The notes under the pieces: generated by a model
The model's database searches: none
What the model was told of the DNA's origin: nothing
What the model saw: the letters and a program-made list of their open reading frames with translations, nothing else
Made by a program: the position numbers and the translations under genes
IMG/VR virus record: IMGVR_UViG_3300033388_002469
Span: 1-24,492 of that record
Strand: one strand, 5' to 3'
DNA length: 24,492 bases
Origin: a virus
Part shown: positions 5,296-21,919 of the stretch, one piece after another
Layout of the letters: the number at the start of each line of letters is the position of its first letter
Numbering within the stretch: position 1 is the stretch's first letter

Positions 5296-6078
5296 ATGGA
5301 CATTACAAAATACCCATTAATACAAAGGTCGGAAGCTCAAATGCCTCCTTCAGCAGAGTTTCAGTTTCTATTTAGAGACAAAGGAAATGGTGGTATGTTA
5401 ACCGCTAAAAACTTTGATTGTTCTTTTGATATTATATCTGTAGGAGAAGTTAGTCAAGAGGCTCTTGTTTTGTTGAATAGTCACATTGAAACAATTCTTG
5501 AAGATGCCGGATGTGCATTAAAGAAAGGTCAAATGACTTCTGATGATTATCAGGAGACTGTTACCAACTTGAATATGTGTGTTGAAGTAAATGTAGATCC
5601 TTTAACTGGTTCTCAGCAGATTTGTGTTACTAATACTCCGACTTTATTTGTTGCATTATCAACATCTGATGTTCTTTGTAATGGTGGAAACACTGGTTCT
5701 GCATCTGTAATTGTTACAGGTGGAACTGCACCGTATAATGTTGATTGGGGTGGGGCTGATGAAACTGCTTTAACAGCAGGTTCATATATGGTTACTGTTA
5801 CTGATGCAAACGCTAAGTCAAAAGCTTTAACGTTTATTATCAATGAGCCGGCAGCACTTTCAGTTAACCCTGTAGTTGTGGATGAGTCTGGTGGAGGGAA
5901 CAATGGTTCTATCACGCTTAACGTGATCGGTGGAACTGCACCATATACATACTTATGGGATGACGGAGCAGTTCAGACTACTGATCCGGCTGTTAACTTA
6001 TCAGCGGGAGACTACAATTGTGTAGTCACTGATGATAATGGATGTGTATTAAACGTAGGACCGATTACGGTTAATTAA
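5296..6078 (+). CDS. SprB-repeat-containing protein
   Basis: Two repeats, 'VLCNGGNTGSASVIVTGGTAPYNVDW...LTAGSYMVTVTDAN' and 'GSITLNVIGGTAPYTYLWDDG...LSAGDYNCVVTDDNGC', match the SprB repeat consensus (PF13573, from memory). No signal peptide and no T9SS CTD. Confidence 0.85.
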   Translation: MDITKYPLIQRSEAQMPPSAEFQFLFRDKGNGGMLTAKNFDCSFDIISVGEVSQEALVLLNSHIETILEDAGCALKKGQMTSDDYQETVTNLNMCVEVNVDPLTGSQQICVTNTPTLFVALSTSDVLCNGGNTGSASVIVTGGTAPYNVDWGGADETALTAGSYMVTVTDANAKSKALTFIINEPAALSVNPVVVDESGGGNNGSITLNVIGGTAPYTYLWDDGAVQTTDPAVNLSAGDYNCVVTDDNGCVLNVGPITVN

Positions 6079-6800
6079 TGAGATGGCTAAAAGAAAATAT
6101 CGTTTCCTCTCTATGTATCGTTGGATGCATTGTGTTGAGCCTGTTTTTATTACAGGAGTGTAAGAACTCTTCTAATTTACGTCAGAATCTAAATTCAACA
6201 AGTAGTTTTTTGGAGATTGAAAAACAACAGTCTATATCGAGGGATTCTATCCACGCTCAAGATGTGAAGATAATGGAGCAAAACCTGATGTCTGAAACAG
6301 CAGCTCGGATACTCCTTCAAGATGAGTTTGAAAGATTTAAAGAAATCTCATCTCATGTACGGGCCGAAACAATTACTCGGATTGATACAATGTTTATTGT
6401 GTATGAGTCCGAAAGTGATGATATAATTAACGAATACACAGACTGCATACCTATTGATACAGTTAGGACGTATTTCATTCAGTCTCCTAAAAGAGTAAGG
6501 TACGCTGATACGTGGTTCGCTTTTGCTGGTATTGTTGATACTATAGGTTTGAATATAGAGTCAATGTCAATGGTTAATAAGTTTGATGTTACTGTAGGCT
6601 GGAAGAAGCCAGACAAACCTTTTAAATTTTTAAGAAGAAAGAAGCCAGTTGTAGAACTTACAAGTTACAATCCGTATACTAAGGTAAACTACGTCAACAA
6701 TATAGTTGTTGAGAATAGGCAAAGTAATTTATTTACAAATGTTATTCTTCCATCAGCTGCATGTTTTGTGGCTGGGTATGGAGTTGCAAAAATAAAATAG
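6078..6800 (+). CDS. Membrane-anchored protein, spanin candidate
   Basis: N-terminal hydrophobic helix ending LLQEC, helical/coiled-coil segment, beta-rich region, C-terminal hydrophobic segment ILPSAACFVAGYGVA followed by KIK. Confidence 0.5.
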   Translation: MRWLKENIVSSLCIVGCIVLSLFLLQECKNSSNLRQNLNSTSSFLEIEKQQSISRDSIHAQDVKIMEQNLMSETAARILLQDEFERFKEISSHVRAETITRIDTMFIVYESESDDIINEYTDCIPIDTVRTYFIQSPKRVRYADTWFAFAGIVDTIGLNIESMSMVNKFDVTVGWKKPDKPFKFLRRKKPVVELTSYNPYTKVNYVNNIVVENRQSNLFTNVILPSAACFVAGYGVAKIK

Positions 6801-10091: not shown

Positions 10092-10871
10092 ATGGCAAGC
10101 GCAAGAGAAGATATAGATGCTTTAGTAAGAGCAAAAAGAGATCCTAATGGAAGCGGTTCGAATGTTAAGTGGAACTCATTAGGCCAATACCTTGTTAATG
10201 ATGAGGAATTAGTTGGTATAAGGAATGTTTTAATTGCAAGAAATGAGACTTTCACTGAAGAGTTTTACAATATAGAAAATGAGACCTACTTGGTTTGGAG
10301 TTTTAACGAACAAAAGTTTGTTAACAAAATAACTGGAGAAGATTACTATATTGAAATTCTTATTGATGATTTTGAATCAGGTGATTTTACTGGTGCTCCT
10401 TGGGTTCTTGCTAATGGTGGTGAAAATGATTGGGAAGTCGGAACTGCTGCAGTTGCAGAAGGAACTTATGGAGCTTACATATCGAATGATGGTGGTACCA
10501 GTAATGTTTATTCTTCTATTGGTGGAGGCTTAGATGTTTCTCATTTATACATTGATATTCTAATGCCTAATGCTACAGGTGAATTAATTCTTTCTTTTGA
10601 TTGGAGATCTGAAGCTGAATCTGGGTTTGATTATGCTAATGTTTTTGATGTTACTACCGGAACCACTCCTGTAGCTAATACAGAATTAGGTGCTGGCTTA
10701 GTTGGTCAATCTGAATATAATGATCAATCTACATTTGTAAATGAACAAATATCTTTACCAATAGGTGAAGCTGGTACGACAAGAAGAATAGTTTTTAGTT
10801 GGAGAAATGATAACTTTATAGAGAATCAGCCTCCAATGGCAATTGATAACGTTAAAATACTTTATTTATAA
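10092..10871 (+). CDS. Virion protein with C-terminal ConA/MAM-like adhesin domain
   Basis: 'DDFESGDF...W...NDWEVG.A...G.YGAYISNDGG...SHLY.DI', 'LSFDWRSEAESGFD' and 'RRIVFSWRND...PPMAIDNV' resemble a domain common in Bacteroidota T9SS cargo surface proteins (recognised by eye). Confidence 0.65.
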   Translation: MASAREDIDALVRAKRDPNGSGSNVKWNSLGQYLVNDEELVGIRNVLIARNETFTEEFYNIENETYLVWSFNEQKFVNKITGEDYYIEILIDDFESGDFTGAPWVLANGGENDWEVGTAAVAEGTYGAYISNDGGTSNVYSSIGGGLDVSHLYIDILMPNATGELILSFDWRSEAESGFDYANVFDVTTGTTPVANTELGAGLVGQSEYNDQSTFVNEQISLPIGEAGTTRRIVFSWRNDNFIENQPPMAIDNVKILYL

Positions 10872-11122
10872 TGGAGAAATTCGTAAAAGAAATATCGACT
10901 AACCTATACAGGGAGATTTCTCAATCTGATTATGATGCTAACCCAGATTTGTATTATGATAGAACTGATCGTCCGAAGTATATTTTAGATCATTATATAG
11001 ATGCAGGTGTATCTTATTGGAGAGCTAGAAGACACTGCGTTCTTTTAGCTGACAATGCTACTAACGGTATTAATGACTTTAATGATCAAGACAAAGCTGC
11101 TTTAGGATGGACAGCAGATTAA
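10871..11122 (+). CDS. Hypothetical protein (possibly the N-terminal part of a split gene)
   Basis: 83 aa, TAATG-coupled; the +1 frame is open from 11106 into the next ORF. Confidence 0.6.
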   Translation: MEKFVKEISTNLYREISQSDYDANPDLYYDRTDRPKYILDHYIDAGVSYWRARRHCVLLADNATNGINDFNDQDKAALGWTAD

Positions 11123-11126
11123 TGAG

Positions 11127-11570
11127 ATGAAGTTATTCTTCGAATCCTTCTATGGGATATCTGATATTGAATCGAGTGAAATGTATCTTAAAAGCGCAGC
11201 TTTAAATAGGTCTAATATGGCTGAAGACGCAAGAGAAATAGTATCTTCTCCTAAGTTAATGGAGATTGGAATTAAATACCTCACTGTTGAAATTGCTGGT
11301 GAGCTAGATTCTTCCCAGGCTTTTGATTTAACAGAAGCTATTGGTGGGTATCTTGGTGATTACGAAAGATTTGCTGTGCTCGGTATTGATCATGGTGACG
11401 AACATGAGGGTATTATGGATTATTTTAGATCAACTAACGGTCATTCTGGAGGTGGATTATTAATGTATAACTTAAATCCCGCACTGATAGATCTATATGG
11501 TTCAGAAGAGTCTGTTAGAAACGCAATGATAGCAGAGCTTGATGACTTATATGTAGAAGGAAACATTTAG
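11127..11570 (+). CDS. Hypothetical protein (possibly the C-terminal part of a split gene)
   Basis: 147 aa, protein-like composition; starts 4 nt after the upstream stop. Confidence 0.65.
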   Translation: MKLFFESFYGISDIESSEMYLKSAALNRSNMAEDAREIVSSPKLMEIGIKYLTVEIAGELDSSQAFDLTEAIGGYLGDYERFAVLGIDHGDEHEGIMDYFRSTNGHSGGGLLMYNLNPALIDLYGSEESVRNAMIAELDDLYVEGNI

Positions 11571-14259: not shown

Positions 14260-14520
14260 ATGCAAGACGGGATGTATAGTCAATTAAGAGTAAAACCAGC
14301 AGAAAATGGCTGGACACTCTGTTGGGAAGAAAAGGTAATGAATCCAATGGCTCCTATGAGTACTTACGGAGATAACTACACTTATCATAGTAAGAAGATG
14401 GTATTCGAGACATCTAAGGACGTATCTATGGAGCAAGCCTTAGATAAGGCAATGGATAAGTACAAGTCATTGTTATTGGCTGATATGCCTTCACAAATGG
14501 ATGAAAAAAAAGGAGCTTAA
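14260..14520 (+). CDS. Hypothetical protein
   Basis: 86 aa with 'VKPAENGWTL' motif; last gene of the + strand block. Confidence 0.65.
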   Translation: MQDGMYSQLRVKPAENGWTLCWEEKVMNPMAPMSTYGDNYTYHSKKMVFETSKDVSMEQALDKAMDKYKSLLLADMPSQMDEKKGA

Positions 14521-14963
14521 AATAGCTCCTCTTCATCATCTTCAACTTTCATTTCTTCTGAGACGGGATCTTCAGAATCAATTTCTTGGAATCTATCATC
14601 TTCAGTCTCTTCGATTTCTTCAACTTCTTCAATTTCTTCTAAGGCCCCGCCTACAGGTTCAGGCATAGAAACTGGAATATCTCCTTTTTCTTGATGCTTA
14701 ACACAAAAGAAATCTAATGATCCATCAACAATAAGGACTAATCCTAATTCAATACAAGTCAAAGACAATCCAGTAATGTTCATTGGTGGCTTGTTGACTT
14801 TAACCATAGGTCTCATATCAGAAAGCTTTCTTTTGTTTAAAGAACAAACTTCTCTAAAGGCTTCTTCAATGTCTCCTGGCTGAGATAAACGACCTTTTAA
14901 GTTGCTTTCTCTGTTGTCGTCCCAGCGTTTTTCGCCTGGAATCTGAATGTTGTAATTGCTCAT
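14517..14963 (-). CDS. Hypothetical protein with highly acidic C-terminal tail
   Basis: 148 aa ending EEIEEVEEIEETEDD...EDDEEELF. Confidence 0.7.
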   Translation of the reverse strand: MSNYNIQIPGEKRWDDNRESNLKGRLSQPGDIEEAFREVCSLNKRKLSDMRPMVKVNKPPMNITGLSLTCIELGLVLIVDGSLDFFCVKHQEKGDIPVSMPEPVGGALEEIEEVEEIEETEDDRFQEIDSEDPVSEEMKVEDDEEELF

Positions 14964-14976
14964 AATTTAATTTTAG

Positions 14977-15051
14977 TCCCACCGGCAGGACTCGAACCTG
15001 CGACACTCGCAATCGGAATTGCAATCCTCTGACCAACTGAGGTACGGCGGG
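14977..15051 (-). tRNA. tRNA-like gene with non-canonical 8-nt anticodon loop (AUUCCGAU); identity undetermined (Arg-CCG or Gly-UCC reading possible); no encoded CCA
   Basis: Minus strand: CCCGCCG-TA-CCTC-AGTTGGTCA-GAGG-A-TTGCA-ATTCCGAT-TGCGA-GTGTC-GCAGG-TTCGAGT-CCTGC-CGGTGGG-A. All four stems pair; GG in the D-loop and TTCGA in the T-loop are present. Confidence 0.9.
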
Positions 15052-15065
15052 CAGCCATTTAATGA

Positions 15066-15647
15066 TTAAAACGGAAGATCATCATCTCCGTCTTCCTCAA
15101 CAGAAACTTCAGCAGATGTTGGTGCTGGTTCTGATTTAGGAACGTTTGAAGTACCACTATTCGGAACTTCTGCTCCAGCATCAACATCATGATGTGAAGA
15201 ACCGCCATCAACAATAACAATTCCATCTTTAACAAGTAGAGCTGGAGTATCATTATCTTGGAATACCTTCCATGAATCATAAGGCTTGTTTCTACCAGTT
15301 TTAGTCTTAGGCTCAACTTTACCAATCCACTTAACCATGATTGAATCACCAGGTTTAACTTTTGTAGGATCAGCTAACATTGAGTTAAGAACTGAAGTTC
15401 CAAAAACCTCATACTCCTTACCTGGCTCCAAATCTTCTGATAAGTGCTCATGGTTTCCACATTCCAAAACTTTGAATTTATGAATTGTGTAAGTATTGCT
15501 TTCGATTGTTGCTTCTCTCGAAGAGATGAAGTGTCCAACAATCCAACTATCTTCAGTTGGTTCCAGAGATACTCTCTCTGCTTTCTTTCCTTTAAAACGA
15601 GGGTCCCACATTGGTAGGAAATCGTTTATGTCTGAGAATCTACTCAT
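15066..15647 (-). CDS. ssb: Single-stranded DNA-binding protein
   Basis: Beta-rich core, flexible linker and acidic tip EEDGDDDLPF; located in the replication operon. Confidence 0.75.
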   Translation of the reverse strand: MSRFSDINDFLPMWDPRFKGKKAERVSLEPTEDSWIVGHFISSREATIESNTYTIHKFKVLECGNHEHLSEDLEPGKEYEVFGTSVLNSMLADPTKVKPGDSIMVKWIGKVEPKTKTGRNKPYDSWKVFQDNDTPALLVKDGIVIVDGGSSHHDVDAGAEVPNSGTSNVPKSEPAPTSAEVSVEEDGDDDLPF

Positions 15648-15675: not shown

Positions 15676-15981
15676 TTACTCTTTTTTCTTCTTGAAACGT
15701 GTAACGTCTCCTTTGAAGTTCTTGTTTTTCTCTTTTCGACCAGCCATCACTTCATCAAACACTTCCTGTCTAATTCTTCTGCCAAGCGCATTAGTAATCT
15801 TTTCAAGCTCAGCTACAGCTTTTTTAGCCTTCTTGATGTCAACTACTTTATTATCGTATTCTAAATCAACCAGAGAGTGTGACAACTCAATAGCTTTATT
15901 AGTAACATCTTCAAGGCATATAGCTTGACTATCCTTTACTACCAGGTTTCTTATTTTGTGACTTTTTGCCAGAGTATACAA
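15676..15981 (-). CDS. Hypothetical helical/basic protein
   Basis: 101 aa from a TTG start with A-rich leader, overlapping the upstream gene by 53 nt; start uncertain. Confidence 0.55.
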   Translation of the reverse strand: MYTLAKSHKIRNLVVKDSQAICLEDVTNKAIELSHSLVDLEYDNKVVDIKKAKKAVAELEKITNALGRRIRQEVFDEVMAGRKEKNKNFKGDVTRFKKKKE

Positions 15982-16339
15982 ATTTTTCGTTTAACAATTT
16001 ATTTCTATCAACCTCCTCAATATCTCCTGGGAACACCCTAACTCTAATCTGAGTATTCAACAGATGACCCATCTTTATAATATCCTCAGCTCTCAAGCTT
16101 GAGGTTGATAAAAGCTCTTCAGCTTCTACATACTGTTTTCTTAAAACATTGTGACTAATACCGATCCTTAAAGCTACTTCATATATAGAGACTCCAACCT
16201 CGTTACATCTATCTATAAGATGCTTTCTAATTTCAGTCGAAGAAACAATAGGACACCATCTTGTCGCTCGTTTGGAATGAATCCTAACAAGCTTCCTCAT
16301 GTTATTAACTATTCTTCTGTGCTCTTCCTCTGAGATCAT
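15929..16339 (-). CDS. Putative helix-turn-helix DNA-binding protein (XRE-like)
   Basis: 'GVSIYEVALRIGISHNVLRK' fits an HTH pattern. Confidence 0.55.
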   Translation of the reverse strand: MISEEEHRRIVNNMRKLVRIHSKRATRWCPIVSSTEIRKHLIDRCNEVGVSIYEVALRIGISHNVLRKQYVEAEELLSTSSLRAEDIIKMGHLLNTQIRVRVFPGDIEEVDRNKLLNEKFVYSGKKSQNKKPGSKG

Positions 16340-21708: not shown

Positions 21709-21743
21709 ATTCCTCAGTAATTAATAATAAAAAGATAAACATC

Positions 21744-21916
21744 TACCCCTTCATATCGGCACCTATTAATGGTTTTGCGAAGGAGTAAGCCGCCAAATAC
21801 GCATCTTGTCAACCATGCGTGTTGCATTTATCTAAGTTAGGAATCCTCTTTCGATTAAGCATGGTCGCTTTATTGCCTATCCCACCCATGCGTATTATCC
21901 TCGTAAACTTCGGATA
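21744..21916 (-). ncRNA. Candidate structured intergenic RNA / cis-regulatory leader
   Basis: Stems AATACGCAT/ATGCGTATT (9 bp), ACCATGC/GCATGGT (7 bp), TACTCCTTC/GAAGGGGTA (9 bp with a G-U that pairs only on the minus strand) and TATCC/GGATA, within a 211-nt non-coding gap. Confidence 0.5.
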
Positions 21917-21919
21917 TCT

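Follow-up and report, generated by a model that had tools for sequence, protein, structure and literature searches.

The stretch of DNA analysed here, referred to as the window, comprises the 24,492 nucleotides (nt) of the IMG/VR virus record IMGVR_UViG_3300033388_002469, a 24.5-kilobase (kb) fragment estimated to be ~42% complete. Its minus-strand replication operon runs from an exonuclease through an SbcC-like ATPase, an SNF2 helicase, a clamp and a primase onwards, and near its end lies a transfer RNA (tRNA) gene with an anticodon loop of eight nucleotides, lodged between two open reading frames (ORFs) of the same strand (Table 1). The analyses presented below identify this element as a natural, conserved SufJ-type tRNA(CCG) in a phage clade.

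Table 1. Features of the window discussed in the text; positions are those of the window (aa, amino acids).
Feature	Position	Strand	Basis or remark
tRNA gene, 75 nt, CCA not encoded	14977..15051	minus	ARAGORN, Rfam, covariation in 10 homologues
Acceptor stem	15051-15045 / 14984-14978	minus	
D arm	15042-15026	minus	nt 26 at 15025
Anticodon arm, 18 nt, UUGCA-AUUCCGAU-UGCGA	15007..15024	minus	sequence, relatives, natural Arg-CCG loops
Anticodon stem	15024-15020 / 15011-15007	minus	
Anticodon loop, 8 nt	15019-15012	minus	
Variable loop, 5 nt, GUGUC	15006-15002	minus	
T arm	15001-14985	minus	
Discriminator A73	14977	minus	
Upstream gene, 193-aa protein, SSB-like acidic tail ...DGDDDLPF	15066..15647	minus	stop codon 14 nt before the tRNA
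Downstream gene, 148-aa protein, P0001 family	14517..14963	minus	ATG 13 nt past the tRNA
Late gene, 240-aa protein, hydrophobic N-terminus, weak DUF6549 match	6078..6800	plus	candidate client of the tRNA, lead only

Read from 5' to 3', the tRNA gene is CCCGCCG UA CCUC AGUUGGUCA GAGG A UUGCA AUUCCGAU UGCGA GUGUC GCAGG UUCGAGU CCUGC CGGUGGG A, and all four stems are regular. The original prediction, made from the letters of the window, had described canonical stems, a variable loop of five nucleotides and an anticodon loop of eight, as well as the unusual set C1-G72, C10-G25, U20 and A73; the anatomy can be read directly from the sequence and each of these nucleotides is present as stated. In the register adopted here, the loop consists of an extra A31.5 at 15019 followed by U32 U33 C34 C35 G36 A37 U38. 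The core tertiary nucleotides U8, A14, G18-G19, R15-Y48 and the T-loop UUCRA fall in invariant columns of the alignment of homologues described below, the 15-48 pair being A15-U48 in L018 (related contigs are designated by L numbers throughout). Both tRNA finders reported one tRNA in the window. ARAGORN, which had been proposed as a check, placed it at 14976-15051 (-) and left it unnamed ('tRNA-???'), with a 2-base anticodon 'cc' that results from reading the anticodon arm as a stem of 6 base pairs (bp) with a 6-nt loop; Rfam RF00005 matched 14977-15051 (-) at 50.3 bits (E = 3e-8), where the gathering score is 29. Whether described as an 8-nt loop or as 6 bp plus 6 nt, the arm thus departs from the 7-nt loop of ordinary tRNAs, and the same is true of five further lineages (L008, L009, L011, L019 and L020). 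The proposal that the loop might be sealed by a UCCG tetraloop stood only in part: RNAfold does zip it into a 7-bp stem capped by UCCG, but covariation backs the outer 31.5-38 pair only, and the inner U32-A37 pair that a sealed tetraloop requires is C.A in L011.

Seven other contigs encode the downstream protein. In six, L002-L007, which derive from four JGI samples, one ENA assembly and one Logan run, the tRNA is identical base for base to that of the window, and an assembly artefact, which had been named as a possible refutation, is excluded because the same 8-nt loop appears in six independent assemblies. In L008, whose neighbouring protein is 86% identical, the tRNA has six substitutions, none within the anticodon arm; they lie in loops or convert G4.U69 into G-C, and no pair is broken.

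Distant relatives with the same gene order were recovered by a profile search with the downstream protein together with a search with a 136-aa family encoded upstream. The anticodon arm of L019, UUGCA-AUUCCGAU-UGCGA, is identical to that of the window at 18 of 18 positions, while its acceptor, D and T stems differ from those of the window, the acceptor in each of its 7 pairs, yet pair perfectly. L020 retains the same loop with two stem pairs changed (UCACA-AUUCCGAU-UGUGA), and the arms of L009 and L011 are GGAUA-UUUCCGAA-UAUGC and GUACA-UCUCCGAA-UGUAU, respectively. Three orthologues at the same site are remodelled: the arm of L012 has 17 nt with A33, that of L021 is weakly paired with the loop CUUUCGA, and that of L018 is ~26 nt longer. 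Two further contigs were judged by the length of the corresponding gap, one of 53 nt, too short for a tRNA, and one of 80 nt, which leaves hardly any room for a 75-nt tRNA and probably lacks the element as well. The Rfam RF00005 threshold was passed by the window, L008, L011, L012, L020 and L021, and failed by L009, L018 and L019. In a tree of the SSB-like protein encoded upstream, the AUUCCGAU form occurs on both sides of the midpoint root, and the 8-nt loop is therefore most simply taken as ancestral.

A covariance model constructed from six 8-nt sequences recovered all the orthologues and yielded a ten-sequence alignment, in which 94.6% of the cells fall in standard pairs as compared with 72.3% in shuffles (0 of 500 reached the observed value), whereas controls with slid partners were paired at 52% or less. 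Because the alignment had been fitted to the structure, pairing is somewhat favoured, though the margin is large. Both sides have changed in 15 of the 21 pairs, and compensatory change extends to each of the four stems; the acceptor and T stems have diverged more than the anticodon arm, and pairs 2-71 and 3-70 are nearly always C-G. Persistence of the 8-nt loop in relatives with covarying stems had been set beforehand as a test capable of refuting the prediction, and the loop did persist. Taken together, these data make it very likely that the element is a genuine tRNA gene maintained by purifying selection, and that the extra nucleotide of its anticodon arm predates the split of the sampled phage lineages.

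The nature of the loop became apparent by comparison with a natural reference of 120 ordinary bacterial tRNA-Arg(CCG) genes taken by pattern. Their loops are CUCCGGA (60 of 120), CUCCGAA (27), UUCCGGU (11), CUCCGAC (10), UUCCGAU (5) and UUCCGAA (3), four further loops completing the set. The phage loops can be written as A+UUCCGAU, U+UUCCGAA and U+CUCCGAA, each of them a natural Arg-CCG loop with one nucleotide added at its 5' side, and they show the Y32-U33-CCG-R37 pattern of tRNA-Arg(CCG). The added nucleotide and position 38 are always complementary, as A-U in four lineages and as U-A in L009 and L011, the switch from one to the other having taken place on two separate branches of the tree. 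Moreover, C1-G72, the variable loop GUGUC and the loop UUCCGAU recur in the closest natural tRNA of the sample. On the grounds of natural-loop comparison and covariation, the phage loop is very likely a normal tRNA-Arg(CCG) loop with a nucleotide added between positions 31 and 32 that pairs with position 38, as in SufJ. The alternative register (U33, UCCG, A37) would put C33 in L011, and a position of the extra base 5' of the Arg-CCG loop, at 31.5, is preferable to one inside the anticodon.

As for its function, we tentatively favour a shift-prone reader of CGG codons, a reading that we nevertheless hold to be somewhat short of probable. The tRNA would be cut from the early replication operon and remain active on the ribosome, where, in the manner of SufJ on its cognate codon, it would bind the rare CGG codon as an A-site triplet; its altered 32-38 region, together with an A37 that cannot carry the frame-keeping methylated m1G37, would then render it prone to a later +1 slip. 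The likeliest clients would be the small number of CGG codons that the phage possesses, in particular three clustered in the late gene of the 240-aa protein, whose hydrophobic N-terminus is read here as a membrane anchor, and the output of this gene, full-length or truncated, would hinge on a tRNA encoded by the phage itself. In favour of decoding, the constancy of Y32, U33, CCG and A37 in the loop, against a covarying stem, matches the behaviour of real isoacceptor families.

CGG accounts for 7 of the 296 Arg codons of the window, in a total of 7985 codons, and is among the rarest Arg codons. Three of the seven lie in the 240-aa gene (6306-6308, 6360-6362 and 6378-6380, corresponding to codons 77, 95 and 101), at conserved Arg residues, and the orthologous gene of L020 holds all four CGG codons of a 20-kb locus (codons 77, 95, 101 and 187). 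In L021, whose tRNA lacks CCG, CGG is kept at codon 77 alone, with AGG and AGA at codons 95 and 101. Simple binomial arithmetic puts the probability of such clustering at ~9e-4 per gene for the window and at ~2e-6 for L020. Reassignment of CGG was rejected and is not suggested by these alignments, since CGG aligns with the AGG/AGA Arg codons of L021.

Several observations weigh against a CGG reader. A20 is the main determinant recognized by bacterial arginyl-tRNA synthetase, and it is absent from every lineage, U or C being found at position 20; likewise, lineages with the same loop differ in their discriminator, which is either A or U. CGG amounts to 0-0.9 per 1000 codons and is equally low with or without a CCG loop, and L021 still has five CGG codons despite its different loop, hence its host presumably reads CGG. 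Supplementation of codon supply was considered as a function and is weak, CGG being rare everywhere. With regard to the candidate client, the window and L020 share ancestry, so that the clustering represents one ancestral event plus one extra gain, and L021 provides a single contrast only. Retention of CGG between the window and L020 was withdrawn as strong evidence, as the rare CGC and CGT are kept too. The +1 frames that follow the CGG sites in the window and L020, open for 14-62 codons, end at non-conserved places. Among the orthologues, the arms of L018 (with its ~26 extra nt), L012 (A33) and L021 (weak stem) are unlikely to decode, the acceptor stem of L011 includes three U.U pairs, and L019 has U53-A61 where, to our knowledge, G53-C61 is near-universal in tRNAs.

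Part of this evidence could be accommodated if the element did not decode at all, a quite possible second explanation. In this case it would be a tRNA mimic, serving as a substrate of RNase P and RNase Z that punctuates the early operon ahead of its last gene, and/or offering its Arg-like arm as a decoy or ligand to a protein that recognizes tRNA-Arg loops, for instance a colicin-D-like anticodon nuclease or some other defence aimed at tRNAs, with the extra 31.5-38 pair burying the 38/39 junction in a helix. In its favour, A20 is lacking, the discriminator varies and there is no need for CGG supply. The spacers to the flanking ORFs are just 14 and 13 nt, and the position between operon ORFs is that expected of a punctuation element; orthologues with a remodelled or extended arm retain their acceptor, T and D pairing, and L018 even the 15-48 pair; and the free RNA is predicted to fold with the UCCG-capped stem mentioned above. 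Furthermore, phage tRNAs have already been tied to anticodon-nuclease conflicts (PMC10264068, PMC11555353). An additional argument, which again counts against a CGG reader, is the presence in L020 and L021 of second tRNA-like elements with aberrant middles in another intergenic gap. These elements, together with the remodelled orthologues, indicate that non-decoding tRNA-shaped RNAs belong to the repertoire of the clade, as would suit an early operon punctuated through RNase P and RNase Z cleavage.

The second elements are located between the genes of the SbcC-like ATPase and the SNF2 helicase (L020 4491-4593 and L021 4524-4606, with Rfam scores of 39.4 and 36.1 bits); the arm of one is extended and closed by UGCG, and that of the other has an 8-nt loop AAGUAAAG devoid of U33. 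The homologous gap of the window (21709-21919, 211 nt) contains no tRNA-like match.

On the other hand, a mere processing signal leaves unexplained both the deep identity of the anticodon arm and the occurrence of Y32, U33, CCG and A37 as in real Arg tRNAs. The arm is remodelled in L012, L018 and L021 but strongly kept in the 8-nt group, and this strict conservation of an Arg-like arm means that a mimic needs a sequence-specific reader, a nuclease decoy being one possibility. No nuclease partner is known or encoded nearby, no established precedent for decoy tRNAs of this kind was found in the literature, and, by gap length, the element is absent from at least one relative (53-nt gap) and probably from a second (80-nt gap).

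Less likely is a sharper form of both proposals, according to which the SufJ-type tRNA would act as a switch, slipping +1 at the three CGG-R codons of the late gene and thereby setting the ratio of full-length to truncated product, or else the locked Arg-like arm would be a decoy that disarms a host defence cutting tRNA-Arg. If true, the switch would constitute a natural tRNA-gated recoding device.

That the tRNA gene has no present function, being in decay or a mere hitch-hiker, is very unlikely. It is true that the Rfam score of 50 bits lies at the low end of those of the tRNAs of two Bacteroidota genomes (33 to 78, mostly >50), that the U.U pairs of L011 are accompanied by an irregular D arm in L009 and by a tRNA missed by Rfam in L019, and that the element has been lost in some relatives. 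Decay, however, would not produce compensatory change in all four stems, a loop invariant in four deep lineages, a 31.5-38 pair restored twice or the six substitutions of L008 that leave every pair intact.

Weakest of all, and scarcely to be expected, is a true quadruplet decoder whose UCCG would read C+GGR or CGG+N at programmed sites elsewhere in the ~70-kb genome: the loop can indeed be written N-U-[UCCG]-A-N, the layout of engineered quadruplet tRNAs, and 16 of 19 in-frame CGG codons across five loci are CGG-R, but this excess is insignificant against base composition (A+G at the next position 0.68), L011 would have C33 in that register, and the identity of tRNA-Gly(UCC) is wanting. The latter comprises U73, G1-C72, C2-G71 and G3-C70, of which C2-G71 alone fits the window tRNA, with its A73, C1-G72 and C3-G70. 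A search for interrupted genes, covering the 24.5-kb window and all or part of nine related contigs, uncovered no CGG at which frame 0 soon stops while the +1 frame stays open for long, whether in the window or at eight loci of relatives (L003, L009, L012, L013, L018, L019, L020 and L021). The earlier suggestion that UCCG reads CGG-A as a quadruplet is therefore unsupported, there being no gene interrupted at CGG-N in the DNA covered, with CGG aligned to AGG/AGA and the extra base best placed at 31.5; the tRNA is most unlikely to be a decoder of a four-base code.

The only split gene of the window, at 10871-11570, is divided into ORFs of 83 and 147 aa. An 11-nt stretch, AGTTTTTGCTT, is present in L002, L003 and L004 and missing after position 11104 of the window, between ...GCTTTAGG and ATGGACAG. 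Hence, a +1 recoding site at 11100-11135 was ruled out, the 11-nt deletion being specific to the window contig and absent from these three sister contigs; the split reflects either a deletion in this strain or a fault of assembly and is no case of recoding. Programmed +1 shifts at two GGA-N junctions of overlapping ORFs upstream of the tRNA were also discarded: at 16328 the downstream ORF has a conserved ATG, and at 15934 an ATG of L012 is aligned with a CTG of the window. The ORF at 15676-15981 (-) shares 35-53 nt with the 136-aa gene upstream, relative to which it lies in the +1 frame; it has ATG in L012 as opposed to CTG in the window and L009, and L009 lacks the TTG of the window, a pattern from which its start is probably non-canonical or coupled.

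The upstream 193-aa protein has no Pfam or PHROG match, and its ...DDLPF tail is kept in all nine lineages. In the downstream 148-aa protein, a disordered acidic linker connects the folded N-terminal domain to an ...EELF tail; this domain, predicted with confidence as alpha/beta, found no fold match in the PDB. Both neighbours of the tRNA thus end in a disordered acidic C-terminal region with an SSB-like tip (EELF, DDDLPF). In each of the eight lineages with sequence for the P0001 gene, this gene comes after the tRNA or its remodelled counterpart. In L011, and only there, the interval that separates the SSB-like gene from the tRNA contains a strong UUCG-capped hairpin followed by UUUUU (428-463), resembling a terminator.

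Related contigs reach 69-71 kb, in agreement with clade genomes of ~70 kb. A contig overlapping the left end of the window (L013, 1-56) encodes, ahead of the first genes of the window, a 2376-aa protein and a 1478-aa protein with a crAss_MUZ domain, that is, a crAss-type muzzle protein domain. Cultured relatives were not detected by blastn or tblastn in the phage collection, where the helicase has 29% identity at most. The 240-aa protein gave one weak match, to Maribacter phage Colly_1, which is the sole hint of a host. The tRNA-bearing group is probably one of uncultured marine Bacteroidota phages. Scans of IMG/VR, including one with the 136-aa family, yielded no relatives, and a pattern scan for the 8-nt family returned already-known contigs only from metagenomes and none from species genomes. 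In a survey of 301 Bacteroidota genomes, 56 matched the strict tRNA-Arg(CCG) pattern, from which no host inference follows.

Most of the expanded anticodon loops described belong to laboratory suppressors or to engineered quadruplet tRNAs, and natural cases conserved over long periods are few. The phage tRNA adds a case in which the extra base occupies the SufJ position and has been selected across a deep clade without genes coded in four bases among the loci searched, and it poses a clean question, namely the role of a natural 31.5 insertion, for which six 8-nt-loop variants, three remodelled orthologues and a candidate client gene provide the sequence set.

Among known systems, tRNAs co-transcribed with mRNAs as sites for RNase P and RNase Z are represented by the tufB operon of E. 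coli and by mitochondrial 'tRNA punctuation'. The phage tRNA resembles them in its place between ORFs with spacers of 13-14 nt, and its relatives do so in possessing tRNA-like elements with non-functional middles; in contrast to punctuation elements, its anticodon arm is conserved far beyond the needs of processing. With bacterial tRNA-Arg(CCG) it shares a 32-38 loop identical to natural variants, a natural subset of which also has C1-G72 and GUGUC, but it differs in the extra nucleotide, the lack of A20, C10-G25 in the D stem and an unfixed discriminator. The yeast mitochondrial tRNA-Thr1(UAG), with the 8-nt loop UUUUAGGU, is a natural decoder of triplets (PMC3113583), and the likeness lies in a natural 8-nt loop, conserved within a clade and thought to read triplets; the yeast tRNA, however, is organellar and reassigns CUN to Thr, whereas the phage one is viral and its CGG aligns with Arg codons. 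The closest parallel in layout is SufJ, a +1 frameshift suppressor derived from a Salmonella tRNA-Thr, in which the inserted C31.5 pairs with A38 and whose stem-loop still binds the cognate triplet in the A site, the +1 shift happening, as its authors argue, later than A-site binding (PMC4238358). In both tRNAs an extra 5' nucleotide sits beside the stem and pairs with position 38, leaving the anticodon unchanged and the loop drawn with eight nucleotides. The phage tRNA, a putative frameshifter, has CCG as anticodon and a Watson-Crick 31.5-38 pair (A-U or U-A) in place of the C.A of SufJ; and while SufJ arose by laboratory mutation from a cellular tRNA whose identity elements are normal, the phage tRNA is a natural gene conserved across its clade.
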